Assembly (NCBI GenBank): GCA_964524885.1
Contig: CAZGEJ010000003.1
Span: 97,994-161,993, forward strand
Reading direction: 5' to 3'
DNA from: an uncultured Candidatus Binatia bacterium
GTDB lineage: Bacteria > Desulfobacterota > Binatia > HRBIN30
Length of the DNA stretch: 64,000 nt
Shown: piece by piece, positions 17,232-64,000 of the stretch
Numbering within the stretch: the stretch's first letter is position 1
Layout of the letters: the number at the start of each line of letters is the position of its first letter
Program-made: the position numbers and the translations under genes
Notes under the pieces: generated by a model
Told to the model about the DNA's origin: nothing
Database searches by the model: none
The model's input: the letters and a program-made list of their open reading frames with translations, nothing else

Positions 17232-17260
17232 CGCGCGCCACGACGGACGAGCCGCGCCCC

Positions 17261-17950: not shown

Positions 17951-18033
17951 GCCTGGCGCGCGCCGAGGCATCTCTGCCGAGCCTCGGTTTCTCACCACGG
18001 ACGGAAATGAAGAGTTGCCGTGAGACGGCCAGG

Positions 18034-19308
18034 CTAGCGCCGACGGCGGGCTTCGACCAGCGCCAGATACCGCTCGACGAAACGTTCCTCGCTGTAATCG
18101 GTGGTGTACGCCTGCCGCGCCTGCTCGGCCAACTGCCGGCGTGTCGTCGGCTCGTCCCGTAAGCGATCGACGGCTGCGGCGAGTTGCGACTCGTGGCGAA
18201 ACGTCAGGCCTCCACCGTGATCCTCGATGAACTCGGCGAGCCCGCTGTGGTCACGAACGATCACGGGTGTGCCGGCGGCGAACGATTCGATCACGACCAG
18301 GCCGAAGGTCTCGAAGCAACGCGACGGCACGATGGTCGCGACTGCCCCGGCATACCAGGGCGCCAGGGCGTTAGCGTCGAGTAACCCGAGCATCCGGACA
18401 TTGGGCGTGCGCCGCGCCTCGTCCGCCAGCCGATCGCCCAAGCGACCCGCGCCGGCGATGACCAAGTCGATGTCGCGCCGCTGGCGAAACACCGACAGCA
18501 AGTCCTCGACTCCCTTTTCGGGTTCGAGGCGGCCGGCGAAGAGGAAGTAGGGTCGGTCGGCAGCGCGACGGACGCTGGGCGCTTGAGGATCGAGCGGATC
18601 GGCATCACAGAAGAGAGGCAGATGGACGATGTCGCCAGCGAGGCCGCGCCGGCGATGCTCCGCCGCGGTGGCACGGCTCGGGGCCAGGAACACGTCGACG
18701 GGTTCGCAGGCGCGCTGCAGCCGACCGACGGAGCGCCACAGCTGCGGCGGCCGCCCGGCATGCAAGGTACAGGCGGCACACGTGGGACGGGTGCAGGCCT
18801 CACGTCCAAAGCGCCAGAGGTCGTGGCGCGGACAGACGAGCCAATGATCACTGAGCGTGCACAACTTGAGAGCGCGGCCGAAGCGAAACGCCTCCAGGCC
18901 GCCCATCATCGAGGGGTTGTTGAAGTGGATGACGTCGTAGTTCTCCGCATCGAGCCAACGGCGCAGCGCCGAGCGCAGCGGCGCAGCGGTTCCGGCCTGG
19001 TGCATCCACAACAGGCCGAGGGCCCCGCCCGTGGCGTCGAGCGGCACGACGTCGATGTTGGGGTGGCGGCGCACCGCACCCATGGGGGGATGCCGGGCGA
19101 GAACGGAAAAGGCGGTACGATCGTGCAGCACGCGCACGAAGTGGCCACGCGCGGCGAGAGCGTGCGCCAGGCGTTCGGCGAAGATGGCATCGCCGCCGAA
19201 GTGGTACGGTGGGTAGAAGGTCGTGACGATACAGACGCGCAAGCAAGGCCGAGCGCCCACCGCGCCGACGTCCCCGGCCGTCGCACCGATCGCTTCGCTC
19301 GTCCGCAT
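18034..19308 (-). CDS. GT4-family (GT-B) glycosyltransferase with a Cys-cluster insertion
   Basis: N-terminal VCIVTTFYPPYHFGGDAIFAERLAHALAARGH is typical of GT4 (MshA/BshA-like). C-terminal E-x7-E region (FETFGLVVIESFAAGTPVI). The insertion CPRHDLWRFGREACTRPTCAACTLH carries four Cys. Confidence 0.75.
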   Translation of the reverse strand: MRTSEAIGATAGDVGAVGARPCLRVCIVTTFYPPYHFGGDAIFAERLAHALAARGHFVRVLHDRTAFSVLARHPPMGAVRRHPNIDVVPLDATGGALGLLWMHQAGTAAPLRSALRRWLDAENYDVIHFNNPSMMGGLEAFRFGRALKLCTLSDHWLVCPRHDLWRFGREACTRPTCAACTLHAGRPPQLWRSVGRLQRACEPVDVFLAPSRATAAEHRRRGLAGDIVHLPLFCDADPLDPQAPSVRRAADRPYFLFAGRLEPEKGVEDLLSVFRQRRDIDLVIAGAGRLGDRLADEARRTPNVRMLGLLDANALAPWYAGAVATIVPSRCFETFGLVVIESFAAGTPVIVRDHSGLAEFIEDHGGGLTFRHESQLAAAVDRLRDEPTTRRQLAEQARQAYTTDYSEERFVERYLALVEARRRR

Positions 19309-19491
19309 GATTCGTTCGAGTCTGGTCGACCCTCGTCGCGATGGCAACCACGTACCGCGCGCAGCGAACGCGACGGCGCGCCATCCCCGAAAGGCCAGCG
19401 ATGTAGGCGAGCGACCCGCCACGGCTTCGCCGCGAAATAGCCATTGACTTCGCTGCCCTCGGGCGGTCTGTTGAGGCACAGCCAGGTTGCC

Positions 19492-21624
19492 ATGTCGAAT
19501 TCGCTGCGTTCGTACCTCACGTCGGTCCCCCTCCTTGCCGTGCTCGTGGGCCTCGGCCAAGCGCCTCCTTCATTGGCGGCACCTTGGCTCGCCGTCGGCC
19601 CGGAGGGCGCACCCGTCTTGTCGATCGGAATCGAGAGCGGCAGCAACACCAACCTCGTCGCCACGGTGCGCGATCGCGGCCTACTCCGCAGTGTCGATGG
19701 TGGCGCGTCGTGGCAGGAGGTAGTCAGCAGTCCGTCGCCGGCACTGCGCGTCGCGGTGCATCCGAGCAATGCGGCGCTGGCGGTGAGTACCGCGTCACAG
19801 GTGTGGTTTCGCCTCGCCGGCGACAGCCGCTGGCTGGCGTCGAAACTGAGCCCCGCCGACGTGATCGCCATCGGGCCGGGCGAGCCGGTCAGCGTGTACG
19901 GCGCGCGCGGCAGCTCGATCCAGCGCGCCATCGGCGAAGGGGCGGCGGTTTCCATCGCCGACGGACTGGCTGGCGCGCGCGTGCGCACGCTGCGGTTCGA
20001 CCCCATTCGCCCGACACGCCTGTACGCCGGGACCAACGACGGGCTGTTCCTTTCGCAGGATCGAGGCACGAACTGGTCCCGCGCCGGCAACGCCCTGGCG
20101 GGCGTCGACATCGTCGCGGTCGCCACCGATCCCCGCCAAGCGAGCCGGCTGTTCGCCGGCGGCAGCGACAGCGGCGTGTGGCGCAGCAGCGACTCGGGGG
20201 CGACGTGGGTTCGCATCAACGACGGGTTGGCCGACCTGCGCATCCGCGACCTGGCGGTCGACGGCAGCGTCGCCGGTCGAGTGTGGGCGGGCACCGAGGA
20301 CGGCATCTTCGTTTCGAACGATCACGGCGCTTCGTGGAGCCGTGCCGACCTCGAGCCGCGAGCGCCGGTCCTCGGCGTGGTCGCCGGCGCAGCGGGCGGT
20401 CTAGCGTACGTCGCCACCAGCACGGGCCTGGTGGTCACCGACGATGCCGGAGCGAGTTGGCAGCCGGCCAACGGCGGCTTGCTGGCGACGACGGTCACGG
20501 CTCTGCAGATGCTCGGCGACGACCCGCGCGAGGTCGTCGCCGGCACCTCCGGCGGAGTCTTCGTCAGCTTCGACGCGGGCGGGCAGTGGTCTAGCTTGAA
20601 CGAAGGCCTACGCAGCCCGCTGGTGCAGGATCTCGCCATGGTCGGCACGGACCTGTTCGCCGCCACGCTGGCCGGGGCGTGGCGCCTGCCCGGCTTGGGG
20701 CAGGCGTGGTCGCGCTTGAACGGCATCACCAATCCGGCGGTGACCTCGGTGGTGGCCGACGGGGCGCTGGCGGATCGGCTCTACGCCGCGACCGCCGGTG
20801 GGGGGATTTTCCGCAGTAGCGACGCCGGTGCCACCTGGCGCGCGGCCAATACCGGCGTCAGCAGCCTGTTCCTCACCCGACTGGCAGCCGTGCCGGGGGT
20901 CCCAGGAGAAATCTACGCCCTCGCCGCCAACCAGGTGATCGTCACCCGCAACGGCGGCGACAGCTGGACGGTCGCCGGCCCTCTGCCCGCAGGGACGATC
21001 GCGGACTTGGTCGTGTCGCCGCACGCGGCGTCACTCTTGTTCCTCGCCACCTCGACCGGCGTGCGTCGCAGCCGCGACGCTGGACAGAGCTGGCAAGAAA
21101 CCGGCTTGAGCGGGCTGAGCGTCGAGTCGCTGCTCGCCTCGGCACGTGCGCCTGGACTGGTGTACGCCGGCCTGCGCGGCGGCAGCATCCGCGTCAGCTT
21201 CGACGACGGCACCAACTGGCAGAGGCTGGGTGGGGCCGGACCGTTGGGTTCAGTTCTCACCATGGCCGAGGCCGCGGACGGCAGCCAATTCTTCGCCGGG
21301 ACGCGCGACGCCGGCGCCTGGGTCGCGCAGCAACTCTGCGGCGACGGTGAACTCGACCCCGGCGAGACCTGCGACGATGGCGGCAACGGCAGTTGCCCCG
21401 CCGGCTGCGGCGCGACGAGCCGCTGCGTCGGCGACTGCAACGGCAGCGGCGACGTCACCGTCGACGAGATCGTCCGCGGGGTGTCGATCGGCTTGGGCAT
21501 CGCCGAAGTCGGGGGCTGCACGGCGATGGATCGAAACGGCGACCGACTCGTCACCGTCGACGAGATCATCGCCGCCGTAGCCAACGCCTTGGGCGGCTGT
21601 CGCGACGCGACGTTGGCGAACTGA
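19492..21624 (+). CDS. Secreted BNR/Asp-box beta-propeller protein (about 10 repeats) with a C-terminal dockerin-like double EF-hand module
   Basis: Signal peptide (MSNSLRSYLTSVPLLAVLVGLGQAPPSLAAP). Ten S-x-D-x-G-x-[ST]-W repeats (SVDGGASW, SQDRGTNW, SSDSGATW, SNDHGASW, TDDAGASW, SFDAGGQW, SSDAGATW, TRNGGDSW, SRDAGQSW, SFDDGTNW). C-terminal GDCNGSGDVTVDEIV...DRNGDRLVTVDEII. Confidence 0.7.
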   Translation: MSNSLRSYLTSVPLLAVLVGLGQAPPSLAAPWLAVGPEGAPVLSIGIESGSNTNLVATVRDRGLLRSVDGGASWQEVVSSPSPALRVAVHPSNAALAVSTASQVWFRLAGDSRWLASKLSPADVIAIGPGEPVSVYGARGSSIQRAIGEGAAVSIADGLAGARVRTLRFDPIRPTRLYAGTNDGLFLSQDRGTNWSRAGNALAGVDIVAVATDPRQASRLFAGGSDSGVWRSSDSGATWVRINDGLADLRIRDLAVDGSVAGRVWAGTEDGIFVSNDHGASWSRADLEPRAPVLGVVAGAAGGLAYVATSTGLVVTDDAGASWQPANGGLLATTVTALQMLGDDPREVVAGTSGGVFVSFDAGGQWSSLNEGLRSPLVQDLAMVGTDLFAATLAGAWRLPGLGQAWSRLNGITNPAVTSVVADGALADRLYAATAGGGIFRSSDAGATWRAANTGVSSLFLTRLAAVPGVPGEIYALAANQVIVTRNGGDSWTVAGPLPAGTIADLVVSPHAASLLFLATSTGVRRSRDAGQSWQETGLSGLSVESLLASARAPGLVYAGLRGGSIRVSFDDGTNWQRLGGAGPLGSVLTMAEAADGSQFFAGTRDAGAWVAQQLCGDGELDPGETCDDGGNGSCPAGCGATSRCVGDCNGSGDVTVDEIVRGVSIGLGIAEVGGCTAMDRNGDRLVTVDEIIAAVANALGGCRDATLAN

Positions 21625-21734
21625 CGCGGCCGCCCGGTCGGGCGGATCATTCGACCGTTGGCGCACAAAAGCATTGCGTTCCGGCCCGATCCTGCCAAGG
21701 CTGCCGATCGATACCGATCCAACTGGGAGTAGCG

Positions 21735-23729
21735 ATGCGACGATTGGGAGCCGTGCGCGGCTGGAAGTTCGTGTTGGTTATGAGCGTCGCCCTGGCGCTG
21801 CCGGTCGCGGCCGGTGCGGAGGACTGCGGCGAGGGTAGCTACGACAGCACCTTCGAGCTGATCCAAGACGTCGTCTTCGAGAAATACGGCTGCACGACCG
21901 CGGTCTGTCACGGGGTTTACGCGGCCGGCGGACTCGACCTGTCGCCGGCCGTGGCCTACCGCAACCTCGTCGACCAAGTGGCGACGACGGTTCCGGGCAT
22001 CAGCCGCCTGTTGCCCGGACAGAAGGACCAGAGCCTGCTGTGGCTCAACCTCGCGGCCAAGACGCTGCCGGAGGAAGTGCATGCGCCGCTGCGCCCCATG
22101 CCCCTCGATCCGGTGCCGGCACTGACGCCGGACCATCTGGAGTTGATGCGCGCCTGGATCGAATCCGGCGCCCCGGAAACCGGCACCGTCGCCGCGGCGG
22201 TCGGCCTGGTCGACGCCTGCCTACCGGCGCCCGAGCCGCTCACCGTAGAGCCGTTGCCGCCGCCCGCCCCGGGCAAGGGCGTGCAGGTGCGCATGCCTCC
22301 CTACGAACTGGGGCCGCAGAGCGAGCGCGAAACCTGCTTTGCCAGCTGGATCGACCTCACCGACCAGGTGCCGGAACAATATCGCGGCGCCGACGGCAGC
22401 ACCTTCCGCTTCAAGCTCAACCGCGTGCGGCAGACGCCGATGAGCCATCACCTGATCGTCAGCATGTACGAGGGCACAGCCTCGCCCGACGATGACCGGT
22501 GGGGCGAGTTCTTCTGCGCCGGCGGCGACAAACATGGCCAGCGATGTGCGCCGACCGACCTCGACTTTTGCGGCGACGGACTGTGCTCGACCATCCCGTC
22601 GAACAGCATTGCCTGCACCGGCTTCGGCCCCGGCGACTCCGGCCTCGGCATCGCCTCCTCGGGCTTCAGCGGCACCCAGGAGACGGCCTCGGAATTCCGC
22701 TTCGCCGAAGGGGTCTACGGCGAGTTGCCGATGCGCGGCATGGTCTTGTGGAACTCGCACGTCTTCAACCTCACGGACAAACCCGGCACCCTCGAGGCCT
22801 GGCTCAACTTCGAGTTCGCCGAACCGGAAGAACAGTTGTACCCGGCCCGCACGATCTTCGACGCCAAGGACATTTTCGCCACCAACGCGCCCGCCTTCTC
22901 CACCGACGAACCGTGCAGCCTGCACGAGTTGCCGCGCAACGCGCACCTGTTCGAGCTGAGTTCGCACGGCCATCGCCACATGAAGCGCTGGCGCACCTAC
23001 ATCGGGGCGTTCACCTGCCAAGGCGGCCCAGCCGTCGGCCAGGCCTGTTCCCCCCTCGGCTACGACTTCGATAGCCGCGACGTCTGCGAAGGGTTCCCCT
23101 GCGCGGCGCCCGAACGCGCCCACGTCGGCGACTGCGACGCCAGCGGCGACGTCACCGTCGACGAGGTGCTCACGGCGGCCAACATCGCCCTCGGCAGCAG
23201 CCCGATCGGCCGCTGCGTCGACGCCGACCGCGACTTCGACGACGTCATCACCGTCGATGAGCTGCTGACGGCAGTCAGCGCGGCGCTGACCGGCGTGCCG
23301 GCGACGACGCTGCGGGATGCCTCGGACAGCTTGGTGTACACCAGCCTGATCTACAACGACCCGGTGGTGCTGCGTTTCGACGACACGCCGCTGGTGTTCG
23401 CCTCGCACTTCCCTGAGGAACGAACCCTCACCTATTGCGCTCTCTTCGACAACGGACGGATCGATCCGACCGAGGTGAAGCGGCGCAGCACGTCACCGCC
23501 ACCGCCGGCCGACGTGCTGCCGGTCGGAGGCCCGTGTGACGAACCGACCCACTGTACGGACGGCAAGGTCGGCGAACCCTGCGTCGGACGCACCGAGCGG
23601 GCCCGCCACGCCTCGTGCGACAGCACTCCGGGCGCCGGTGACGGCATGTGCGACGCCTGCACCCTGACGGGCGGGGTGACGACGGAGGACGAGATGTTCA
23701 TTCTGATGGGGCAGTATTACGTGCCGTAG
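21735..23729 (+). CDS. Secreted His-rich monooxygenase-like protein, paralog 1 (tentatively PHM/DBH-like copper enzyme), with CX4CH motif and an internal dockerin-like module
   Basis: Signal peptide; YGCTTAVCHG; MSHHLIV (HH); NSHVFN; SSHGHRHMKRW (HxH...M). GDCDASGDVTVDEVL...DADRDFDDVITVDELL inserted before a Cys-rich C-terminal domain. 60-70% identical by eye to the downstream paralog. Confidence 0.55.
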   Translation: MRRLGAVRGWKFVLVMSVALALPVAAGAEDCGEGSYDSTFELIQDVVFEKYGCTTAVCHGVYAAGGLDLSPAVAYRNLVDQVATTVPGISRLLPGQKDQSLLWLNLAAKTLPEEVHAPLRPMPLDPVPALTPDHLELMRAWIESGAPETGTVAAAVGLVDACLPAPEPLTVEPLPPPAPGKGVQVRMPPYELGPQSERETCFASWIDLTDQVPEQYRGADGSTFRFKLNRVRQTPMSHHLIVSMYEGTASPDDDRWGEFFCAGGDKHGQRCAPTDLDFCGDGLCSTIPSNSIACTGFGPGDSGLGIASSGFSGTQETASEFRFAEGVYGELPMRGMVLWNSHVFNLTDKPGTLEAWLNFEFAEPEEQLYPARTIFDAKDIFATNAPAFSTDEPCSLHELPRNAHLFELSSHGHRHMKRWRTYIGAFTCQGGPAVGQACSPLGYDFDSRDVCEGFPCAAPERAHVGDCDASGDVTVDEVLTAANIALGSSPIGRCVDADRDFDDVITVDELLTAVSAALTGVPATTLRDASDSLVYTSLIYNDPVVLRFDDTPLVFASHFPEERTLTYCALFDNGRIDPTEVKRRSTSPPPPADVLPVGGPCDEPTHCTDGKVGEPCVGRTERARHASCDSTPGAGDGMCDACTLTGGVTTEDEMFILMGQYYVP

Positions 23730-23731
23730 AG

Positions 23732-23770
23732 AGGCTTAGGCTTAGGCTGAGGCTTAGGCTGAGGCTGAGG
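23732..23770. repeat. Tandem hexamer array (GGCTTA/GGCTGA), about 6.5 copies, immediately 3' of monooxygenase-like paralog 1
   Basis: The sequence directly after the TAG stop reads gaggcttaggcttaggctgaggcttaggctgaggctgagg. Confidence 0.9.
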
Positions 23771-23840: not shown

Positions 23841-25829
23841 ATGCGGATTCGCGACTTCGCGGTAGGGGCGATGGCCGCGGTCCTGCTCGGCACTGGGCCA
23901 GTCCTCGCCGAGGACTGTGACCCGGAGAGCGCCGGCAGTACCTGGCAGCTCATCCAGAGCGCCATTTTCGAGAAGAACGGCTGCACCACGGCCATCTGCC
24001 ACGGCAGCGTCGCCGCCGGCGGCGGCTTGGACCTGTCGCCCGCGGTGGCTTACGACAACCTCGTCGACGTCATGGGCGGCAGCGTGCCGACCATCCGTCG
24101 CGTCTTCCCCGGTGAGAAGGACCGCAGCTTGTTGTGGCTCAACCTCGCCGCCAAAACGCTGCCCGACGAATACACCGCGCCGCTGCGACCGATGCCGGCT
24201 GATCCGCTGCCGGCACTGACCGAAGACGAGCTCGAACTCGTGCGCCTGTGGATCGAGGGCGGCGCCCCGGAAGAGGGGACTGTGCGCGGCACCGAGGACT
24301 TCGATCCCTGCCTCCCCGAGCCCGAACCGATCCCCGTCAAGCCGCTGCCGCCGCCGGCCCCCGACGAGGGCTTCCAAATCCGCATGCCCCCCCGGCCATT
24401 GCCGCCGAACAGCGAGAGTGAAGTCTGCTACGCCACCTACTACGACGTCAGCGCCCAGGTGCCGGAGAAGTTCCGCGGCCCGGACGGCACGACCGTGCGC
24501 TACAAGCGCAATTCGATCCGCCAGGACAGCTCGAGCCACCACCTCATCGTCAACCTGTACGAGGGCAGTTCCGGCGTCGACGACCCCGAGTGGGGCGCCT
24601 GGAAATGCCGCGGCGGAGCGCGCGAAGGCCAGGCCTGCAACCCGCTGGACCTAGGCGTGTGCGGTGAGGGCGGCGAGTGCGCCACGCCCGTCGTGTCGGG
24701 GGTGGCCTGCATCGGCTACGGCCCGCCGGACGCCGGCACCGGCCTGATGAACGCCGGACTCTCCGGCTTGCAGGAGTCCGCCGGCACCTTCGAGTTCGCG
24801 CCGGGCGTGTTCCGCGAGATGCCGCTGAAGGGCATCATCCTGTGGAACTCGCACGCCTTCAATCTCGACGCTCAGCCGAGCAAGGTCGAAGCCTGGCTCA
24901 ACTTCGAGTTCGCCCAACCCGAAGAACAAGAGGCCGAGGCGATGCAGATCTTCGGGGCCGACGAAATCTTCAAGATGAACGCGGAGCCGTTCCAAACCGA
25001 CGAGCCGTGCAACATCGAGATCCTGCCGCCCAAGGCACAACTCTTCGAACTCAGCTCCCACATGCACCAGCGCGGCAAACGCTGGCGCACCTTCCTCGGC
25101 GCCTTCCGCTGCGAGGGTGGACGCAACACCGGAGCCCCGTGCTCGCCGCTGGGCTACGACTTCAGCAGCCGCAATCCCTGCGGCAACAACGGCCGCTGCG
25201 TCTCGCGCGTGCGCAGCCGCGCCGGCGACTGTAACCGCAGCGGCGACGTCACCGTCGATGAGGTCATCACCGGGGTCAACATCGCCCTGGGCACCGCCTC
25301 GGTCGACACCTGCTTCGACGCCGACCGCGACTACAGCGAGTCCGTCTCGGTCGACGAGGTCGTGACCTCGGTCACGGCCGCCCTGCAAGGCGTGCCGCCG
25401 GCGGTCGAGCGCAACCCCGAGGAAAGCCTGCTGTACACGAGTTTCGTCTACAATGACCCGGTTTACGTCCGGTACGACCCACCGATGGCGTTCCCCGGCC
25501 GCGGTTCGGAGGCGGACGAACGCGCCCTCACGTACTGCGCCCTGTACGACAACGGGCACACCGACCCGGCGACGGTAAAGCGCAAGTCGACCTCGCCGAA
25601 TCCGCCAGTGAGCTTCCCCGGCATCGGCGGCCCCTGCGATACCCCGAGCCACTGCACCGAGGGCAAGGTCGGGGCCGAGTGCAACGGCCGCACCGAGCGG
25701 GCGCGCGATGCCTCGTGCGACAGCACCACCGGCGCGGGCGATGGCCGCTGCGACGCGTGTACGCTCACCGGCGGCGTGACGACCGAGGACGAGATGCTGC
25801 TGCTCCTCGGCCAGTACTTCGTGCGCTGA
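23841..25829 (+). CDS. Secreted His-rich monooxygenase-like protein, paralog 2
   Basis: Same architecture: NGCTTAICHG, SSHHLIV, SSHMHQRGKRW, GDCNRSGDVTVDEVI...DADRDYSESVSVDEVV, and the same C-terminal Cys pattern (CTEGKVGAECNGRTERARDASCDSTTGAGDGRCDACTLTGG). AAGGAGA RBS before the ATG. Confidence 0.55.
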   Translation: MRIRDFAVGAMAAVLLGTGPVLAEDCDPESAGSTWQLIQSAIFEKNGCTTAICHGSVAAGGGLDLSPAVAYDNLVDVMGGSVPTIRRVFPGEKDRSLLWLNLAAKTLPDEYTAPLRPMPADPLPALTEDELELVRLWIEGGAPEEGTVRGTEDFDPCLPEPEPIPVKPLPPPAPDEGFQIRMPPRPLPPNSESEVCYATYYDVSAQVPEKFRGPDGTTVRYKRNSIRQDSSSHHLIVNLYEGSSGVDDPEWGAWKCRGGAREGQACNPLDLGVCGEGGECATPVVSGVACIGYGPPDAGTGLMNAGLSGLQESAGTFEFAPGVFREMPLKGIILWNSHAFNLDAQPSKVEAWLNFEFAQPEEQEAEAMQIFGADEIFKMNAEPFQTDEPCNIEILPPKAQLFELSSHMHQRGKRWRTFLGAFRCEGGRNTGAPCSPLGYDFSSRNPCGNNGRCVSRVRSRAGDCNRSGDVTVDEVITGVNIALGTASVDTCFDADRDYSESVSVDEVVTSVTAALQGVPPAVERNPEESLLYTSFVYNDPVYVRYDPPMAFPGRGSEADERALTYCALYDNGHTDPATVKRKSTSPNPPVSFPGIGGPCDTPSHCTEGKVGAECNGRTERARDASCDSTTGAGDGRCDACTLTGGVTTEDEMLLLLGQYFVR

Positions 25830-25830
25830 C

Positions 25831-25922
25831 GCGAAGGCTGAGCCAAAGTCCAAGGCTGAGGCTGAGTTCGGAGAGCGGTTTCCGAACCTCAGCCTCAGCC
25901 TCAGCCTCAGCCTCAGCCTAAG
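25831..25922. repeat. Inverted hexamer arrays: (GGCTGA)x2, spacer, (TCAGCC)x5, forming a long hairpin 3' of paralog 2
   Basis: The sequence reads aaggctgag...caaggctgaggctgagttcggagagcggtttccgaacctcagcctcagcctcagcctcagcctcagcctaagcc. The stem has at least 20 bp. It is the same hexamer family as 23732-23770. Confidence 0.9.
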
Positions 25923-26027
25923 CCTTTGCCCCGACCAATTCTGTCGAAATTCTGATTGCCTCGCCCCCCGGCGCTGGCGTAGAACGTAGCGTCGTCTCGA
26001 TCTACGCCGGAACCGAAGGGGGCCTTG

Positions 26028-29000
26028 ATGTTGCTGAACCGACTCCGGTTGGGTTTGCTCGCCACGTGTGTTGCCATTTCCTGGACTGCCCTCGCCGAGG
26101 CGCAGACCCTGACCAAGGGCGACGAATCGTGCCGCTCGACGCTCGCCAAGAGCGTGCTCAAACTCACCCGAACCTCCCTCCGAGAACAGGCCCAGTGCCA
26201 CCGCCTGCGCATGCTCGCGGCCCTGCCCTCCTCGGTAGAATGCAACGACTTCGATAGTTTGCCGGAGAATTCACGCGACAAGATCGAGGGCGTCGTCGCC
26301 AAGCTACGCAGCAAGGCGGCGCGCGGCTGCCGCGCCGCTTCCTTGCCGGCGGGCAACGGCTACACCACCTGCCCGGCGCCCTGCGACGGCATCGCCGTCA
26401 CCAACTACGACGGGGTCGGCTCCTGCCTCGCTTGCCTCGTGCGCGACCGCGTCGACGCCACCGGCGTCATCATTTACGGCACGCCGCCGACGCCGGGCAC
26501 CGAAACCGACGAACAAAGCTGCCAGAACAGCCTCGCCGCCGCCCTCGAGACGCATTTCAAGGGCCGCTTCGGCGAACAGATCCGCTGCCAGAAGAAGCAG
26601 GACAAAGGCAAGCTCGCGGCGGGCATCGACTGCAAAACCTATGACCCCAAAGGCAAGCTGGCGCGCAAACGGGAACAGGGCGAGGCGCAGGTCGACCGCT
26701 GCGTCCTCGACTCCATCGTCGCCCAACTCGACAGCTGCGCCAGCACCCTCCCCGGCGAACGCGCCTGTCTCGGCGATGCCGTCGAGGAGTACTCCGACAC
26801 CCTCTTCGACTACGTCTTCCCGCCCGAGCCCACGCCGACGCCCACTCCTTCGCCTACCCCCGCGCCTCTCGACTGCCGGGACGGCAACGAATGCGTACTC
26901 ATGGAAGTGCAGCCCGGCCCGAGTGAACTCGGACCGACCGACGACGGACGGTCCAGTTGGTACAAGATCACCAACATCGTCGCCTTCCTGGGATTCAACG
27001 CCAACAACGGCTCGAAGGGCAATTTCGAGGTCGGCCCACTGATCTTGGAAAAGGGCCTCAGCCTCGACGGCGACGGACGCACGAGCCTCGTCTTGGCGGA
27101 GCCCGCCATCCTCGGCGCCTCCTTCCCCGCCGCCTCCGGCCGCCCCGGACGCGTGTGCTTCGAAATCACCCAGGTCAGCGGCCAGCCCGGCTGGGTCGAC
27201 TGCAACGGCGGCTCCAACGCCGACGTCAGCCTCAGCATCGACAGCAACGGTACCGCCGCCGCGTCGCCCTCCTCGATCCTCGTCGCCTCCGGCGCGAGCG
27301 ACTCCGGTCCAGGGGCCGCGCTGCTCCACGTCGACATCCGCATCAGCGCAACCACCAACGCGATCGACCCTTGCTCGGCCGCCAATTTCACCAATGCGCC
27401 GGTCGTCCGCACGGCCCTGACGACGGCCACCGCGGTCAGTAGCGTCAGCGAAACGCGCCAAAACGTCGAATCGCCGACGTTCCACCCGAACGCCACGGTC
27501 GACGTCACTCTCACCGGACAGCCCCTCGATTGCGCCAACTTTGGCCCTGGGATGCGCAGCAGCTTCGTCGCTCCGGTCTACGAGCTGGATACGACCCCCG
27601 GGGTCGTCGCCGGCCGTTTCGACCTGGCGGACGTGCTGCGCCTCGACATGATCGCCGCCAATACTGAACCGGGCGCGCCGACGTCGACGCCGACCGAAAC
27701 GCCGACCGAACCGGCTCCCACGCCGACCCCGACGCCCGCCGCGCCCACGCCGACGCCTGAGCCCGTCCTCTGCCCCCCTGGCCTCACCTGCGCCGCCTTC
27801 GACATCCTCCCCGGCTCCGGCGCACTCCTGCCCGTCGACGACGGCGTCTCGACTTGGCTGCGCATCTTCGACTTCACCGGCGGCAGCCTGTTCGCCAATG
27901 CCACCAACGGCGCCTTCGGACCGGGTCCGGTCATCTTCGGCCTGGGCGCCACCGACGGCAACGGCATCGCCCCGCTGCGGTTGGTCGGCACCACCTACCT
28001 CGGCGCCAACTTCGTCAGCGCGGCGCAGGATCTGGGCCAGCAAGGCACGATCTGCGTCAAGCTCGAACCCGATCCCGTCAACGAGGGCTGGATCGACTGC
28101 GACGGCGGTACCAACGGCAGCGCCAGTCTGGCGGTCGACAGCAACCTGTCGAACCCGCCGCCACCCAACCCGGTGCCACTGCTCGACGTGCCCGCCGCCG
28201 CCGACGGCGGCGCCGCCGCGGGCACGGGCGTCGCCCGCATTCTGGCGTCGTTCGTCGTCGCGCCGGCGAATGACGCCGCTTGCAATACCCTCGACTATTC
28301 CAGCTCACCGGTCATCGCTACGGCCCTCACCACCGGCCAGGCCACCAGCTTGGTGACCAACGACGTCATCGACGGCAACGGCCCCGCCTCCGCCGGCGTC
28401 AACCAAACCTCACTCTCCGGTAGCCCCTTCTCCTGTGCCGCATGGGGCGACCCGAATGGAGCCTCGGCCAGCGTCGTCGCCCCGCTCTTCGCCCTCGACT
28501 TCGTCGCCCCGGTGCTCAACCTCACCGTCGACGTGTCGCAGGCCTTCCGCCTACAGCTCGACCCCGTGAATCTGCCGACCGGCGACGAAACGCCGACGCC
28601 GACGCGCACCGACACCCCGACCACGACGCCGACGGAAACGCCGACACGCACGCCGACGCGCACCGTCACCCCGACGCGTACCCCGACGTTCACCCCGACC
28701 GACACGCCGACGGTCACCCCGACCGCCACGCCCACCGAGACACCGACCGAGACGGCGACGCCGACGATCACGCCGACGCCGACGAACACCGCGACGCCGA
28801 CCGCGACCTTCACGCCCTTCGGCCCGCCGGTGCGCAACGTCACCATCATCGACAACACCAGCCAACTGGAACGTGGCACCCAAGCCCTCGGCAACTGCTT
28901 CCGCCGCGGCCAGACCAGTTCTTCCGTCCTATCCTCGACCGGCACCAGCTTCTCGACGCAGTTCCGCTCCAACGTCACCACCGACTGCGAGGCCGTGCCC

Positions 29001-30530
29001 ACCGGCGGCGGCAGCTTCACCGGCAACCTGACGCCGAACTACACGATCCAGTTCGACATCGCCTGCCCGGCCGGCGCTGCCTATACGCTCACCGTCAACA
29101 CCTCCTCGGGCGGTGCCTTGACCGTCAACCGCGACAACGGCGACGGCTGCGATCTGCCCTTCTTCGGCACCACCGACCAGTCGACCGCCTTCATGTCGGC
29201 CATCAGCGGCAGCAATAGCGGCGGGACACTGCAAAGCGCCGGCACGCTCAACCTCGACGCACCGGGTTCGCTGGTCTCCAGTAACGACAGCAACACCGCC
29301 TTCAGCGACAGCAACAGCGCCGTCATCACCGGCGTCGGCACCGGCGCCCCGGTCGCCCACTCGCTCACCTTCAACTGGTCGACCTCCTGCGTCAGCAGCG
29401 GCAATAGCCTCGACACCGGAGCCGAGTGCAGCGTCCGCTTCGGACGTGACTCCGACCTCGAGCCGAACGGCATCTCCGGCTGCATGACGGCCGACGACTA
29501 CCCCGGCGTCGGCAGCCGCTCGACCGCCAGCGACGGCCATATCGTCAGCTTGTCGGCAAGCTGCGGCGCCACGCCCACGCCGACGATCACCCACACCCCG
29601 ACGATCACGCCGACGCCGACGGTCACGCCGACCAACACGCCGACGATCACCCCCGGTGGCCCAACCCTGACACCGACACCGTTGGCCACCGCCACAGCGA
29701 CGGCCACGGCGACCGCCGAACCGCTGGGCACTCTCAACTTCAGCGTCGTCACCGGCCCCGGCGGCAGCGATACCGCCCCCGGCTGCCCAGGTGAGCCTTC
29801 CAACGGCTCGCTCCTCAAGACCCAGGGCAATCCGACCGGCGGCATCCCGGGCACCATCTGCAACGGCACCAAGGGCGACTTCTACATGCTCGGCGGACCC
29901 ATGCAGCTGAGCGGCGGCTCCCCCGACGCCAACGGCATCGCCGATCTCAGCATCGTCGCCCCCGTCGTCGTCGGCGCCAGCCTCCCCGGCTCGACCCCCA
30001 ATTGCAGCAACTGCGACGCTTGCTGGCGCATCGAACAGGATGCCACCGTCGGCTTCGTCGACTGCGACGGCGGCTCCAACGCCAGCGTCTCGGTGACCAT
30101 CGACAGCAACGGCTCCAGTGCCCCGCCCGCCCCCGCCAATGGTCCGTACCTCCTCGGCAGCGGCAATACCGGCAGCGGCGCCGCCGTGCTGAATGCGATC
30201 ATCAAGCGCAAAACCGTCACCGGTTCGTGCCCCGGACCGTCCGACTCGTCCTGGAACTCGCCCGACAGCACCGTGTCGGCGTACCTGGTCACCGGCAGCG
30301 CCACCTCGACGATCGACGACCGCCGCCAGTGCAGCGGCAGCACCTTCGGCACGGCCTGTCCCTCGAACAACCCGTATACGGTGACGCTCAGCGGCACTAA
30401 CCTGAACTGCAACACCTGGGCCGAGAACACCGGTGCACGCTTCGTCGTGCCGTTCCAGAATCTCGACCAGGTCATCGGCGGCAGCTTCGGCAACGGCGAC
30501 ATCGCCCAAGTCCTGCGCCTGAACGACTGA
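26028..30530 (+). CDS. Giant secreted modular protein, 1501 aa, with Thr/Pro-rich linkers and three homologous modules (scaffoldin-like architecture)
   Basis: Signal peptide ([28 protein letters not shown]). Four (TP)n linkers, up to about 75 aa ([23 protein letters not shown]...). Three homologous modules carry the conserved core [VI]C..[IL]...[GW][WF][VI]DC[ND]GG[ST]N[AG][SD][VA]SL[SAT][IV]DSN. They are separated by a distinct Ser/Thr/Asn-rich module. Cys-rich N-terminal domain. Confidence 0.7.
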
Positions 30531-30639
30531 TCTCCGGCCAAGCCTTCGCTACCCAGCGGCCACCGTCAACGACCGTGGCCGCTGGGTGGCGGGGCCCGTG
30601 CGCGTTGACTCGCGCCTCTCGCCGCCACTACAGAGCGGT

Positions 30640-50296: not shown

Positions 50297-51160
50297 ATGC
50301 TCGACCGCCGCCGGAAACCAATCGTGCGCTGGCACCACGACACCGGCTGCACCGGCGACGTCGACGAAGTGGTGCGCGAGGAGCCACTCGAAATCTTCGT
50401 CGACGACGAGCCCGTCAGCGTCACCATGCGCACTCCGGGTGATGACGAAGCGCTCGCCGTCGGCTTCCTTCTCGGCGAAGGATTGCTGCAGACGAGAAGC
50501 CAGATCGCCGCCGTCGAAGGCGGCAGCGACGGCCTCGACTGCAACCGGGTGATCGTCCGCTTGAGCCCAGGCACGACGATCGACGTGCAGCGCTTGAGCC
50601 GACACGTCTTCGCCTCATCGAGTTGCGGCCTGTGCGGCAAGACGAGCATCGCCGCCATCCGGCAGAATCTGCCCGCCCTGGACAGCGATGTCGCCGTGCC
50701 GGCCGAGACCCTGTTACTGCTGCCGGAACGACTGCGCGCGGCGCAGGCCAACTTCGCCCGCACCGGCGGCGTGCACGCGGCCGGCATCTTCGACGCCACC
50801 GGCGAACCGATCGTCGTGAGGGAAGACGTCGGCCGCCACAACGCCGTCGACAAAGTCCTCGGCTACGGCTTGCTCAGCGAACGCGGCCCGTTCGACCGGC
50901 ACGTGTTGATGGTCAGCGGCCGCACCTCGTTCGAGATCGTACAAAAGGCCTTGGCGGCGCGGGTGCCGATCCTGGCGGCCGTATCCGCGCCATCGAGCCT
51001 AGCGATCGAACTGGCCCAAGAGGCCGGCATGACGCTGATCGGCTTCCTGCGCGGCGCCGGCATGAACATCTACTGCGGCCCGGAGAGAATTCCGACAAGT
51101 CCGACAGGTCCGACCGGTCAGACAGGTCAGACTTGTCAGACCTCTCCCGAATCACGATAA
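50297..51160 (+). CDS. fdhD: Formate dehydrogenase accessory sulfurtransferase FdhD
   Basis: Catalytic-loop SSCGLCGK motif, GGVHAAG, HNAVDK. Follows the molybdoenzyme gene 4 nt downstream. The C-terminal 20 aa (PTSPTGPTGQTGQTCQTSPESR) are encoded by a 9-bp tandem repeat array. Confidence 0.85.
   Translation: MLDRRRKPIVRWHHDTGCTGDVDEVVREEPLEIFVDDEPVSVTMRTPGDDEALAVGFLLGEGLLQTRSQIAAVEGGSDGLDCNRVIVRLSPGTTIDVQRLSRHVFASSSCGLCGKTSIAAIRQNLPALDSDVAVPAETLLLLPERLRAAQANFARTGGVHAAGIFDATGEPIVVREDVGRHNAVDKVLGYGLLSERGPFDRHVLMVSGRTSFEIVQKALAARVPILAAVSAPSSLAIELAQEAGMTLIGFLRGAGMNIYCGPERIPTSPTGPTGQTGQTCQTSPESR
51092..51142. repeat. 9-bp tandem repeat array (GACARGTCN, reverse orientation of the GTCTGACCT family), 5-6 copies, overlapping the fdhD 3' end
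   Basis: The sequence reads ccgacaagtccgacaggtccgaccggtcagacaggtcagacttgtcagacc. Confidence 0.9.
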
Positions 51161-52550: not shown

Positions 52551-52556
52551 GATACT

Positions 52557-52643
52557 CGAGGGCCAAGGTGCAAGGGCCAAGGGCCAAGAAACCCCGAGGT
52601 ACGAACGCAACTCTTGGCCCTCGTACCTTGGCCCTTGGCCCTC
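52557..52643. repeat. Imperfect inverted repeat built from GGGCCAAG octamers, between convergent manB and glmS
   Basis: gagggccaaggtgcaagggccaagggccaag ... cttggccctcgtaccttggcccttggccctc. Confidence 0.85.
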
Positions 52644-52666
52644 GACTGCGTCGCCCCGACGCAGTC
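52644..52666. terminator. Perfect 9-bp-stem hairpin (gactgcgtc-gcccc-gacgcagtc); candidate bidirectional terminator for manB and glmS, with no U-tract
   Basis: Seen directly. The hairpin sits between convergent genes, directly adjacent to the octamer palindrome. Confidence 0.5.
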
Positions 52667-55735: not shown

Positions 55736-56755
55736 TCAAGCTTTGGCAAGCGACGATTGGCGGCGTCGCTGTGCCAGATCGGCGGCCATGAGGATGGCTG
55801 CGGCCATGCTGCTGGGGTCGGCGACGCCGCGGCCGGCGAGGTCGAAGGCGGTGCCATGATCGGGCGAGGTGCGGACGAACGGCAGTCCGAGGGTGACGTT
55901 CACCCCGTCGGCGAAATGCAGCAGCTTGAACGGCCCGAGGCCTTGGTCGTGGTACATGCAGACCACGGCGTCGTAGGTGCCGGACATGGCGTGAGCAAAG
56001 ACGCCGTCGGCGGCGGCCGGGCCGTCCGCCTGCATCCCGGCGCGGCGCGCTCGGCGCAGCGCCGGCGCGATGACGCGGATCTCCTCGTCGCCGAAGAGGC
56101 CGCCTTCGCCGGCGTGCGGGTTGAGCCCGGTGACGGCGATGCGTGGGCGGGCGATGCCGAAGTCGCGGCGCAGGGCGTGCTCGGTGATGCGCAGCGTCTC
56201 GAGAACGAGCGGCGCGTCGATGCGCCGCGGCACCTCGGCGAGAGCCATGTGAATGGTGGCCAGTACGACCCGTAGCTTGGGGCCGGCGAGCATCATGCGC
56301 ACCGGGACATCGCCGGCGAGCTGAGCGAGCAGCTCCGTGTGGCCCGGAATGTCGTGGCCGGCAAGGGCGACGTGCTCTTTGCTGATGGGCGCGGTGACCA
56401 GCGCTTCGGCATGGCCTTCCTGCACCAGGCGGGCGGCCGCCAAGATCGCGGCATACGCCGCGCTGCCGCAGGCAGCCTTGGCGCGGCGCGTCCGCGGTAG
56501 ACCATGGGACCCATAGGACTCATGGGTCCTATGGGTCCCATCCTCGATCGAAAGGGTCTGCAGGCGATCGCCGAGCTTGAGCCCGAGGCGCTCGGCAGTG
56601 GCGTGAAACACTTGCGGCAGGCCCACCAGGATCGGCGTGACGGCGCGCCGGACCTTGGGCTGGGCCAGTGCCTTGAGAGTCACCTCCGGGCCGATGCCGG
56701 CCGGGTCGCCCATACTGATGGCCAGCACCGGGCGGGAACTGCGGGCCGGCGGCAT
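55736..56755 (-). CDS. pdxA: 4-hydroxythreonine-4-phosphate dehydrogenase
   Basis: VLAISMGDPAGIGPEV N-terminus. Conserved segments include ALVTAPISKE and the GTNxxPHAGE-like GLNPHAGEGG. The ATG overlaps the surA stop (TGATG). Confidence 0.9.
   Translation of the reverse strand: MPPARSSRPVLAISMGDPAGIGPEVTLKALAQPKVRRAVTPILVGLPQVFHATAERLGLKLGDRLQTLSIEDGTHRTHESYGSHGLPRTRRAKAACGSAAYAAILAAARLVQEGHAEALVTAPISKEHVALAGHDIPGHTELLAQLAGDVPVRMMLAGPKLRVVLATIHMALAEVPRRIDAPLVLETLRITEHALRRDFGIARPRIAVTGLNPHAGEGGLFGDEEIRVIAPALRRARRAGMQADGPAAADGVFAHAMSGTYDAVVCMYHDQGLGPFKLLHFADGVNVTLGLPFVRTSPDHGTAFDLAGRGVADPSSMAAAILMAADLAQRRRQSSLAKA
56505..56538. repeat. Perfect 13-bp inverted repeat with 8-nt loop, inside the pdxA coding sequence
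   Basis: The sequence is gggacccatagga-ctcatggg-tcctatgggtccc. It is flanked by direct catgggwcc copies. It encodes ...EDGTHRTHESYGSHG... in the pdxA frame. Confidence 0.8.
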
Positions 56756-61259: not shown

Positions 61260-61362
61260 GGGCGTCGGAGGATAGCAGGCGGAAACGGCGTGCATAGCAA
61301 TCGCCCCGGGGGTGAACAAACCGCGCGTTGAGGCGCCGGGGTGGATTCGCTAGGTTCGCCGC

Positions 61363-61695
61363 ATGCCCACTCCCGACGAGTTGTATGATCAAGCGGTCGA
61401 CGCGATCGCCGACGGCGACGTGCCGGCGGCGGTCGGACATTACCAAGCGGCACTGGAGCTCGACCCGAACTTCGCCGACGCCTGGGAGGGGTTGTCGATG
61501 GCGTTGGCGGATCTGGAGCGCTGGCCCGAGGCGATCGCGGCGGCTCTCAAGGTGGTGGAGCTGACGCCCGAGGAGCAGCTGGCGTACACGAACGTATCGC
61601 GCATCTACCAGCGCGCCGGCGACGTACCCGAGGCGGAAGCTTGGGCGGCCAAAGCGCGCGTCCTGGATTGGAAGCAGCAGATCAAGAAAGTCTGA
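61363..61695 (+). CDS. Small TPR-repeat protein (110 aa)
   Basis: Two to three TPR-like helix pairs (AVGHYQAALELDPNFADAWEGLSMAL...WPEAIAAALKVVELTPE). Confidence 0.6.
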   Translation: MPTPDELYDQAVDAIADGDVPAAVGHYQAALELDPNFADAWEGLSMALADLERWPEAIAAALKVVELTPEEQLAYTNVSRIYQRAGDVPEAEAWAAKARVLDWKQQIKKV

Positions 61696-61776
61696 CAAGT
61701 CCGACCTGTCTGACCTGTCTGACCTGTCTGACCTGTCTGATCTGTCTGACTTATCAGACTTGTCGGACTTGTCAGA
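61690..61776. repeat. 9-bp tandem repeat array (GTCTGACCT and variants), about 9-10 copies, filling the whole intergenic space between the TPR gene stop and the GNAT gene stop
   Basis: gtctgacaagtccgacctgtctgacctgtctgacctgtctgacctgtctgatctgtctgacttatcagacttgtcggacttgtcaga. Confidence 0.9.
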
Positions 61777-62740
61777 AGCGGTCGGACAGCCAGTAGACGC
61801 TGGCGTCGGGCGGCAGGGCTCGCAGCCAGAAATCCGGCGCCTCGACCTCGGCCGCGGGGCAGCCTAGGCGGCGCGCCAACGCCGCGGCGTCGACGACGCG
61901 CCACATCCAGAAATAATCGTCGACCATCTGCACCGTCGCGCCGGCTCGCGTCAGGCAGGCCAACACCTCGGGGAAGGTCCCAAGTTGGGTGGCCACGCCC
62001 GCTTCGCCGGCCGCCTCGACCGTCGCCAGGCGCTGCACCAGCGCCGCCAGGTCGGCGGCATGCCCGAGAGCGTGGGCCGATTCGATGAGCACGTACAGTC
62101 CATAGAGGCGGGTACCGCGGACGTAAGCGACGATGCGCCCGCCGCGGCGCGCCACGAGGAAGTCTTCGGTCAGCTGCCCGGCGGTATGCAACTGGCCGAG
62201 CCAATAAGCGCGGTCGCGTACCGTCGTGCCGGTCGTCGTCGCGTAGGCCGCATCATACATCGACCGCACCGCCTCCAGGTCGTCGAGCTCGAACGGCGCG
62301 ATCGTCGTATCGCCGGCGAGCTGCGTCGGCGCCGGTACGACGTAGGCCCAGCGGCGTGCATGGGATTGCCAACCCAAGCGACCGTAGAACTCCAGCCGGG
62401 TAGCGAACAGCAGGCTGACCTCGAAGCCGTGCCGCGGCATCGCCGCCAGCGCCGTCTCCAGCAACGCGGTCGAGATGCCGCGCTCGCGGTAGGCGGCGTC
62501 GGTGAAGACATTTCCCACCCCGGCCACCTCGACCACTGCTTCACCGAAGCGGACCTGTTTGCGCAGCACCTGCAGCGTCGCCACCAAGCGACCGCCCTCT
62601 TCCGCGACGAAGCAGAGGTCGTCGCGGAAGGTGGGGTCGTAGGCGAAGTAACGGGCGAAGTGGGCGCGGCTTTCGCCCTCCCAGTGGCCCAGCAGGTCGA
62701 GCACCGCCTCGCGCTCGCCGGTGTGGATCGTGCGGATCAT
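61772..62740 (-). CDS. GNAT-family N-acetyltransferase (Eis-like two-domain architecture)
   Basis: GNAT motif A region (GISTALLETALAAMPRHGFEVSLLF; Q/R-x-x-G-x-G/A-like ERGISTAL) and a C-terminal extension. Bracketed on both sides by 9-bp tandem repeat arrays. Confidence 0.8.
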   Translation of the reverse strand: MIRTIHTGEREAVLDLLGHWEGESRAHFARYFAYDPTFRDDLCFVAEEGGRLVATLQVLRKQVRFGEAVVEVAGVGNVFTDAAYRERGISTALLETALAAMPRHGFEVSLLFATRLEFYGRLGWQSHARRWAYVVPAPTQLAGDTTIAPFELDDLEAVRSMYDAAYATTTGTTVRDRAYWLGQLHTAGQLTEDFLVARRGGRIVAYVRGTRLYGLYVLIESAHALGHAADLAALVQRLATVEAAGEAGVATQLGTFPEVLACLTRAGATVQMVDDYFWMWRVVDAAALARRLGCPAAEVEAPDFWLRALPPDASVYWLSDRF

Positions 62741-62744
62741 GGGA

Positions 62745-62813
62745 GTCTGACTTGTCTGACCTGTCTGACTTGTCGGACTTGTCGGACCTGTCGGACGTGT
62801 CGGACGTGTCGGA

Positions 62814-62815
<2 letters not shown>
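62745..62815. repeat. 9-bp tandem repeat array (GTCTGACTT / GTCGGACNT), about 8 copies, filling the whole intergenic space between the GNAT start and the NMO stop
   Basis: The sequence reads gtctgacttgtctgacctgtctgacttgtcggacttgtcggacctgtcggacgtgtcggacgtgtcggacta. It has the same orientation as the 61690 array. Confidence 0.9.

Positions 62816-64000
<1,185 letters not shown>

Follow-up and report, generated by a model that had tools for sequence, protein, structure and literature searches.

Short tandem repeat arrays with predicted hairpin folds adjoin stop codons around an acetyltransferase gene of an uncultured Candidatus Binatia bacterium

Repetitive extragenic palindromic (REP) units are imperfect palindromes of 20-40 nt which occur in alternating orientation, are separated by linkers, and are associated with the gene of a REP-associated tyrosine transposase (RAYT, or TnpA-REP). 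REP units and bacterial interspersed mosaic elements (BIMEs) are located after stop codons or between convergent or operon genes, are thought to stabilise upstream mRNA or to attenuate transcription, and are lineage-specific and variable among strains. Tandem repeats with units of 5-11 bp, designated LSSR5-11 (long simple sequence repeats), were reportedly surveyed by Mrazek, Guo and Shah in PNAS in 2007 (a paper cited in PMC4060949) in the large genomes of free-living bacteria, where they are said to be mostly non-coding and patchily distributed among lineages, to differ in length as a result of slippage, and to have a function that is not known and may be structural; the survey reportedly featured neither self-complementary units nor paired inverted hairpin arrays nor the overwriting of stop codons. 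Rickettsia palindromic elements (RPE), which Ogata et al. are said to have described in Science in 2000, are reportedly selfish elements inserted in frame in protein-coding genes. Direct repeats of the heptamer TAACTGA occur in marine Beggiatoaceae, in cyanobacteria, and in some Bacteroidetes, mainly just upstream of start codons, in a single orientation and without self-complementarity (PMC4679880). Template switching makes and maintains hairpins, and at quasipalindromes it perfects or extends imperfect inverted repeats (PMC7202029, PMC8794818). Here, we analyse a stretch of 64,000 nt of an uncultured Candidatus Binatia bacterium (hereafter, the window; GenBank assembly GCA_964524885.1, contig CAZGEJ010000003.1, positions 97,994 to 161,993), in which both gaps around the gene encoding a GNAT acetyltransferase are filled by arrays of a 9-bp palindromic repeat.

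According to our analysis, the arrays are not a device specific to the GNAT gene. The explanation that we favour, with moderate confidence, is that they are lineage-specific hairpin repeats driven by slippage at the 3' ends of genes, which act as, or replace, 3' stem-loops and which bracket the GNAT gene only through chance occupancy of both of its gaps.

The nonamer arrays and the gene ends they adjoin

The three arrays of the nonamer family in the window, numbered 1 to 3, and the genes which they touch are as follows.

61363-61695, + strand: TPR gene, 110 aa (Pfam TPR families)
61690-61777: array 1, about 10 units of GTCNGAC plus 2 nt, occupying the 76 bp which separate the convergent genes TPR and GNAT
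61772-62740, - strand: GNAT acetyltransferase gene, 322 aa (Pfam Acetyltransf_9)
62745-62815: array 2, 8 units, occupying the 73 bp which separate the NMO stop from the GNAT start, both genes lying on the - strand
62814-63917, - strand: nitronate monooxygenase (NMO) gene (identified by Pfam)
50297-51160: fdhD open reading frame (ORF), running through array 3 (Pfam FdhD/NarQ domain)
51090-51141: array 3, 6 units of the same GTCNGAC family, inverted, inside the fdhD ORF at its 3' end; the phosphomannomutase start follows 27 nt downstream

Tandem Repeats Finder (TRF) places array 1 at 61690-61773 (period 9 bp, 9.3 copies, 85% matches, consensus GTCTGACCT), array 2 at 62745-62815 (period 9 bp, 7.9 copies, 90% matches, consensus GTCGGACTT), and array 3, of the same nonamer family, at 51091-51141. 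The unit of all three is GTCNGAC[C/T]T, 9 bp long and repeated head to tail, with a variable spacer of 2 nt. When at most one mismatch is allowed, the dimer motif GTCNGACNTGTCNGAC finds 36 matches against 0.22 expected, a number reached by none of 100 shuffles, and every one of the 36 matches in the 64-kb window is confined to arrays 1, 2, and 3; outside the arrays, the bare GTCNGAC core shows no enrichment in the window. At the unit centres, array 1 has TCTTTTTAGA (T C T T T T T A G A), array 2 has TTTGGGGG on its + strand, and array 3 has TTTGGG on its - strand; each array is heterogeneous, with a T-centred block followed by G- or A-centred units. The pyrimidine-T spacer is found on the + strand in both array 1 and array 2, which share their orientation, and array 3 runs the opposite way.

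A preliminary description of this DNA had reported that direct repeats of the nonamer fill both gaps around the GNAT gene, that the two arrays share their orientation, and that the GTCnGAC core is palindromic; TRF and the shuffle test bear out the first statement, the orientation of the spacers the second, and the identity of GTCNGAC with its own reverse complement the third, while the array boundaries which it placed at codons of the TPR, GNAT, and NMO genes are as described or tighter. It did not note that the arrays are heterogeneous, a T block being succeeded by G/A-centred units. The third array that it had recognised is of the same family and inverted, as stated, but lies inside the fdhD ORF and not merely at its 3' end. 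As an inventory, the description was right about the three arrays of this family, although it missed four arrays of other families in the window.

The arrays extend into the ends of the genes. The first unit of array 1 contains the TPR stop codon TGA (61693-61695), as GTC-TGA-C, and supplies both the last TPR codon and the stop (GTC TGA); the last, degenerate unit of the same array contains the GNAT stop codon (61772-61774). The edge of array 2 is 4 nt from the GNAT ATG, a start codon which stands beside the array without a Shine-Dalgarno sequence, and the NMO stop codon TAG shares bases with the final unit at the other end of the array. Since the Pfam domain of FdhD extends to residue 265 of 287, precisely to where array 3 begins, the last 22 residues (PTSPTGPTGQTGQTCQTSPESR) are deemed to be repeat-encoded, by array 3. 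The TPR protein ends in KKV* or LKV* only in array-bearing genomes, whereas the ends in array-less relatives are KEDK*, LK*, KEGKQ*, or KEGA*. The sequences thus compared indicate that the arrays overwrite gene ends, supplying the stop in the TPR gene and adding a tail to FdhD. The C-terminus of GNAT, SDRF* (TCC GAC CGC TTC TGA C), resembles two repeat units, yet it is conserved in array-less relatives, which marks it as native by sequence and not array-derived; it could have been a seed or anchor. By their Pfam assignments, the flanking genes are of housekeeping type rather than surface or host-interaction genes.

Other repeat families, predicted folds, and relatives

Four further arrays, belonging to other families of 6, 7, and 9 bp, were found in the same 64 kb.

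23731-23770: array of GAGGCT/TAGGCT hexamers (6.7 copies), beginning 2 nt past the stop of gene 21393-23729
25831-25929: inverted pair of hexamer arrays (GGCTGA... / CCTCAG x6.5), a hairpin just after the stop of gene 23842-25829
52556-52645: two heptamer arrays forming an inverted pair (AGGGCCA x4.3 / CTTGGCC x4.3), in the gap where the phosphomannomutase and GlmS genes converge
56495-56550: palindromic nonamer repeat of the CCATGGGAC / GGGTCCTAT type, in a variable segment within the PdxA coding sequence

Irrespective of family, all six intergenic arrays lie at most 10 nt from a stop codon, and none of the six is in a divergent promoter gap. Gene 23842-25829, a 684-aa ORF with no Pfam match, is itself bracketed by two arrays of the hexamer family (23731-23770 and 25831-25929), so the bracketing of a single gene appears as a recurring effect of array density and not as a property of the GNAT gene. 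The repeat at 56495-56550 is encoded in frame in PdxA as ...EDGTHRTHESYGSHG..., with net length unchanged relative to the PdxA of an array-less relative (L127, below); the PdxA start coincides with the SurA stop at 56755. Two other features of the window are recorded here as separate observations: a 1501-aa ORF at 26025-30530, with no Pfam match, contains long Pro/Thr/Asp-rich coding repeats with periods of 12-54 bp (28574-28807 and 29570-29717), and about 2.2 kb at 17231-19444 hold no ORF that passes the filter on GC content at third codon positions used for the gene map.

Since GTCNGAC is self-complementary, T-centred units can pair with A- or G-centred ones, and an array which contains both can fold on itself. 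The predicted fold is a long stem in which 7-bp helices are separated by 2x2 internal loops. Array 1 folds with -51.7 kcal/mol (z -6.1) on the + strand and -49.2 kcal/mol (z -5.0) on the - strand; array 2 with -45.6 kcal/mol (z -3.6) on the + strand and -28.9 kcal/mol (z -2.3) on the -, here the sense, strand; and array 3 with -33.2 kcal/mol (z -4.6) on the +, here the sense, strand and -44.2 kcal/mol (z -5.3) on the - strand. Comparable values were obtained for the hexamer pair at 25831-25929 (-55.9 kcal/mol, z -6.9), the heptamer pair at 52556-52645 (-57.6 kcal/mol, z -5.7), and the nonamer repeat in PdxA at 56495-56550 (-33.7 kcal/mol, z -4.4), while no significant fold was predicted for the hexamer array at 23731-23770 (z -1.4). 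Arrays 1 to 3 and three of the four arrays of other families therefore reach z -3.6 to -6.9 on at least one strand. When all 3' ends in the window with room downstream were surveyed, strong structure (z -5 to -7) was almost confined to the array-bearing ends and to a unique 21-bp stem at 30547-30591, with weaker structure after 44700. Stem-loops which follow stop codons and have no U-tract thus belong to the repertoire of this genome. Terminators without U-tracts have been reported for GC-rich bacteria.

The GNAT protein has its closest named relatives in metagenome-assembled genomes (MAGs) of Candidatus Binatia. Contigs 100% identical to the window were found in five ERR34949xx samples, with identical arrays. 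All four identical contigs that reach array 2 end inside it, and a Logan contig (L123) ends inside the heptamer array at 52556-52645; short-read contigs that end in arrays are a weak and indirect sign that the repeats are multi-copy in the genome. Four more distant loci, for which the identities given are those of the proteins, inform on the history of the arrays.

L124: Mfd 99%, GNAT 96%; same NMO-GNAT-TPR-Mfd order; array 1 of about 3 units (about 10 in the window); array 2 of 8 units with other centres and spacers
L126: Mfd 88%, GNAT 75%; array 1 degenerate, a true inverted repeat; at the array 2 site, a family of TAGGACC/GGGACC type
L127: Mfd 76%, GNAT 64%; no arrays in about 20 kb
L153: Mfd 76%, no GNAT found; no arrays in about 20 kb

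The array 2 gap of L126 (631-685) holds a hairpin repeat, ATAGGACCTAG...CTAGGTCCTAT, with internal GGGACC/GGACC units, which is related to the family inside the PdxA gene of the window, and this suggests that repeat families can substitute for one another at one site. Mixed unit orientation was seen only in the L124 and L126 versions, array 2 of L124 having inverted spacer blocks, whereas the window arrays are direct tandem repeats. In a TRF survey of arrays of 5-11 bp units at 80 Mfd loci, almost none were found in about 240 kb of relatives at 60-82% Mfd identity, against six strict arrays in the 64-kb window. Arrays are thus present at 99% and 88% Mfd identity and nearly absent at 60-82%, and the array habit is restricted to a narrow clade.

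The orthologous GNAT gaps retain their hairpin potential in L124 (-43.1 kcal/mol, z -6.0) and L126 (-29.4 kcal/mol, z -5.2, and -49.9 kcal/mol, z -6.8), whereas neither GNAT gap of the array-less L127 folds significantly. The persistence of hairpin potential in L124 and L126, even at a gap whose repeat family has been exchanged, favours a role as a 3' stem-loop.

The comparison of copy number among relatives, which the preliminary description had proposed, shows that array 1 does vary, from about 10 units in the window to about 3 in L124. Array 2 keeps 8 units in both, although 17 of its 73 positions differ (23%); all 17 differences fall in the 22 centre and spacer positions, and the 47 core positions are free of them (hypergeometric P = 4e-12). 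Over the same pair, the flanking genes diverge by 6.4% in GNAT (14.9% at third-codon positions), 3.2% in NMO, and 2.7% in TPR. Since the variable positions of array 2 are near-randomised while its cores are untouched, its divergence is best read as gain, loss, or replacement of whole units rather than as point mutation, and the aligned sequences indicate that this whole-unit turnover is much faster than change at neutral sites.

The GNAT gene adjoins TPR-Mfd in relatives with and without arrays, and its place beside TPR-Mfd in the array-less L127 argues that it was not imported with the arrays. On this synteny, we regard GNAT as a resident chromosomal gene and not as part of a repeat element. 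The relatives at 76% Mfd identity carry a 504-aa multihaem cytochrome gene next to TPR, which in L127 lies between GNAT and TPR, and in L127 RadA takes the place upstream of GNAT that NMO has in the window (window side 61319-61363 compared). As judged from gene order, the window lineage has lost or moved its cytochrome and RadA neighbours, and both GNAT-flanking arrays are located at synteny breakpoints relative to these relatives.

Explanations of the arrays

In the explanation that we favour, replication slippage, possibly with hairpin-templated strand switching, would enlarge the arrays until growth is halted by purifying selection on the flanking coding sequence. Template switching at quasipalindromes would yield the inverted arms that are paired in the hexamer and heptamer arrays, as well as the spacer blocks which are inverted in array 2 of L124. 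The arrays would serve as, or replace, the U-tract-less 3' stem-loops which this GC-rich genome puts after some of its genes, and their stem-loops would end transcription or shield the 3' end of the mRNA, as enterobacterial REP/BIME do. By this analogy, a 3' stem-loop role, in terminating transcription or in stabilising mRNA, is probable, and among the functions considered in the preliminary description, an effect on termination is the most plausible. That description had also stated that generic REP-like repeats at hundreds of ordinary 3' ends genome-wide, without variation in copy number, would imply no role specific to the GNAT gene; within the window, the arrays are essentially repeats of this kind, although the copy number of array 1 does vary.

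Several points weigh against this explanation. U-tracts are absent at the arrays, bar one weak match to a stem plus T-rich tail at 61710-61694 on the - strand. The sense strand folds more weakly than the antisense at array 2 (-28.9 versus -45.6) and at array 3 (-33.2 versus -44.2), contrary to what selection for an mRNA hairpin predicts. Most array-less 3' ends in the window are without significant structure, and a stem-loop is therefore not obligatory here. Slippage adds units and does not itself overwrite flanking codons, so that the replaced TPR end needs an extra event, and the role as terminator or stabiliser is suggested by predicted folds. Strand-specific selection on the RNA through G.U pairing was also considered; at arrays 2 and 3, the strand on which G.U pairs could form is the antisense one for the flanking genes, and L124 behaves differently.

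Another explanation, which we deem possible though distinctly less probable, is that the arrays are neutral or selfish by-products of slippage, the palindromic unit being prone to slipped and fold-back mispairing and the hairpins being a mere consequence of its sequence; the arrays would grow in any place that selection tolerates, namely non-coding DNA and C-termini which are dispensable. It would account for the rapid turnover and the differences in copy number between close relatives, for arrays which occupy the whole intergenic space and spill into gene ends, for unrelated unit families with the same habit, for the array-less state of sister lineages, some of whose gaps show no visible replacement, and for the weaker sense-strand folds at arrays 2 and 3. 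What it leaves unaccounted for is that, across three diverged relatives, these two gaps have kept their hairpin potential, even with the family replaced, that array 2 numbers exactly 8 units in L124 as it does in the window, although its variable positions are almost completely shuffled, and that the six intergenic arrays all adjoin stop codons and avoid divergent promoter gaps. The idea of the preliminary description that the direct arrays flanking GNAT permit its excision or tandem amplification by recombination is, in our judgement, very improbable. Arrays 1 and 2 are indeed direct and about 1 kb apart, and both coincide with breakpoints of synteny in the comparison with the 76% relatives, although between genomes so far diverged any breakpoint has to be intergenic in any case. 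The longest exact run common to the two arrays is 17 bp, within an identity of 83-87% over 52-71 bp, which makes them a poor substrate for homologous recombination. All contigs with an identical TPR or GNAT protein are single-copy and none lacks or duplicates GNAT, in a sample of few contigs from one study; GNAT stays by TPR-Mfd where arrays are absent; the GTCNGAC family also occurs at fdhD, 10 kb away, and other families flank unrelated genes; and no recombinase was found by Pfam among the roughly 31 ORFs of the window. A contingency locus, in which the number of units would switch or tune the expression of GNAT or the C-termini of its neighbours, and to which the same description had alluded with regard to transcription or termination, is hardly credible either. 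The variation of array 1 between close relatives and the short distance of array 2 from the GNAT ATG could be adduced for it, as could the fact that, in the TPR frame, a T-centred unit is a stop (GTC TGA) and the other units read through, so that turnover could alter the tail; but a period of 9 bp, a multiple of three, cannot shift the frame, no promoter-like sites were found at the arrays, array 2 has the same number of units in the window and in L124, the arrays are identical in five samples of one strain, and the flanking genes are, as said, of housekeeping type. We also considered footprints of 9-bp target-site duplications of an IS10-like transposon and rejected them, as they would leave the 6- and 7-bp families and the inverted arms unexplained and no transposase is present.

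The nonamer is not limited to this lineage. A scan of one genome per species with a three-unit pattern gave more than 118 stretches among the matches listed, often several copies per MAG, from Lentisphaerota, Verrucomicrobiota, Planctomycetota, Bacteroidales, Myxococcota, Acidobacteriota, and others; among these listed matches, most are intergenic, often 0-30 nt from a stop codon, and the centres are mostly C-only, C/T, or G/A and unable to self-pair. In viral contigs, the pattern gave 89 stretches against 42 and 49 for the composition-matched controls GACNGTC and GTCNCAG, and 20 loci with at least 6 units against 12 and 9. An array of identical organisation is that of a Muribaculaceae MAG (CAJTYC010000007.1; locus L101, 2101-2179), (GTCTGACYT)3(GTCGGACTT)6, in which a T block is followed by a G block as in arrays 2 and 3 of the window; it lies between two genes in the layout TTTGGGGGG, at a distance of 25 nt to a start codon and of 7 nt to a stop codon on the opposite strand, in a Bacteroidales locus of 53% GC. 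The roughly 2-fold excess over controls and the centres that do not self-pair elsewhere suggest that 9-bp arrays have for the most part arisen independently, the GTCNGAC unit being at best mildly preferred, and for the same two reasons a conserved cross-phylum element was rejected as the main explanation. As separate observations, a Lentisphaerae MAG (SIG83, SUVX01000032.1; locus L016, 600-1700) has four arrays of 4-5 T-centred units each, at the same position within a larger repeat of about 250-350 bp (...ttgatggcaacggtggtatgcgtgttgcggtggcgtggcgcta-[array]-caag...), and the arrays recur on several further contigs of the MAG; the context looks unlike that of the window and may be a composite repeat. 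Heptamer-rich genomes are known, and examples are two distant Mfd loci (40-41% identity, 52-55% GC) with heptamer arrays of 9-14 copies, namely CAAAGAC, GTGAATG, and ATTAACT in L158 (11921-13313) and AGTAGGC and GCAGTGG in L177 (2403-5007).

Such a recurrence bears on the proposal that the arrays are cooperative sites for a putative DNA- or RNA-binding protein which reads GTCNGAC at 9-bp spacing, for example a nucleoid-associated protein or a post-transcriptional regulator; we regard it as rather improbable. A dimeric binding site would hardly be expected to be as short as a 3+1+3 palindrome. In support of the proposal, no change was found at 47 core positions against 14.9% at nearby neutral third-codon positions, the nonamer with its pyrimidine-T spacer recurs across phyla, including the T-block/G-block array of the Muribaculaceae, and there is a parallel with what has been proposed for the TAACTGA heptamer repeats, which abut start codons without a Shine-Dalgarno sequence as array 2 does (PMC4679880). 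Unit replacement alone, however, explains the conservation of the cores equally well, the relative at 88% (L126) has a different family at the array 2 site, unrelated families of 6, 7, and 9 bp coexist in the window, the viral-contig pattern is only about 2-fold above the controls, and the bare core is not enriched outside the arrays. Binding of CsrA (GGA), Hfq (ARN), or Rho (YC repeats), which the unit sequence brought to mind, found no support. Similarly doubtful, in our view, is an active process of this lineage, whether a dedicated enzyme which reads the palindromic core or the loss of a function in hairpin processing or mismatch repair such as SbcCD or MutS/MutL, by which hairpin arrays would be built and homogenised at stop codons and gene ends rewritten, together with the related notion that GTCNGAC[C/T]T, with the Muribaculaceae array included, is a cross-phylum recognition element rather than a convergent product of slippage.

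If the arrays are hairpin repeats of gene 3' ends, as we favour, the tempting reading of a mobile or amplifiable acetyltransferase cassette is removed, and what takes its place is a recent burst of several families of hairpin-forming short tandem repeats after stop codons, which is new for Candidatus Binatia in the literature searched. This search found nothing on repeats of Binatia; queries with the nonamer gave only chance matches of primer type, and those with 16-18-mers gave nothing. Should the pattern be true genome-wide, it would offer a natural system for the origin and spread of palindromic microsatellites, for the de novo formation of 3' stem-loops, and for C-termini reshaped by repeats. 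On the practical side, the arrays break short-read assemblies and mislead gene callers into extended ORFs, the fdhD call being an example.

Comparison with known systems

The preliminary description had excluded CRISPR and classical insertion sequences (IS), and we reach the same conclusion for both. The defining repeats of about 23-50 bp with unique spacers are not present in the arrays, and Pfam detected no Cas domains among the roughly 31 window ORFs; the same set contains no transposase, integrase, RAYT, or reverse transcriptase. An IS or a MITE (miniature transposable element with inverted repeats) was rejected on these grounds and since the arrays have no unique internal sequence, the whole element being repeat. 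An integron cassette (attC) was rejected as well, there being no integrase in the window and no GTTRRRY core, and GNAT being syntenic with TPR-Mfd in relatives. A search of the whole window at Rfam gathering thresholds gave no matches.

With REP/BIME, the arrays have in common a palindromic unit and stem-loops (z -3.6 to -6.1 for arrays 1-3 on the better strand), as well as their location, array 1 lying between convergent genes, arrays 2 and 3 between genes on the same strand, and all of them touching a stop codon or the 3' end of an ORF. They differ in that the unit is of 9 bp with a 7-bp palindromic core, is repeated in direct tandem, and coexists with several unrelated families; no RAYT is found among the window ORFs. 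REP units are dispersed in hundreds of copies over a genome, and the 64 kb analysed here hold three arrays of the GTCNGAC family. By analogy, the arrays would behave like miniature REP/BIME clusters, from which they depart in unit size and orientation. The properties attributed to LSSR5-11 are shared by the window arrays, which consist of 8-10 units of 9 bp and are mostly non-coding, restricted to a lineage, and polymorphic in length. The palindromic repeats in coding sequence, namely the 22-residue tail of FdhD, the final TPR codon, and the internal segment of PdxA, are reminiscent of RPE, although the latter are dispersed elements of 100-150 bp and the units here measure 6-9 bp. Template switching, in turn, is a mutational process and not an element family, and we infer its action at the window arrays.

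The TAACTGA heptamer system may be considered the closest published analogue in spirit. In both cases, intergenic arrays occur in distant phyla, abut coding regions without canonical ribosome-binding sites, are absent from close relatives, and have spread by a mechanism which is unexplained; the arrays of the window, however, track stop codons and are predicted to form hairpins, and the cross-phylum excess of their nonamer is only about 2-fold.

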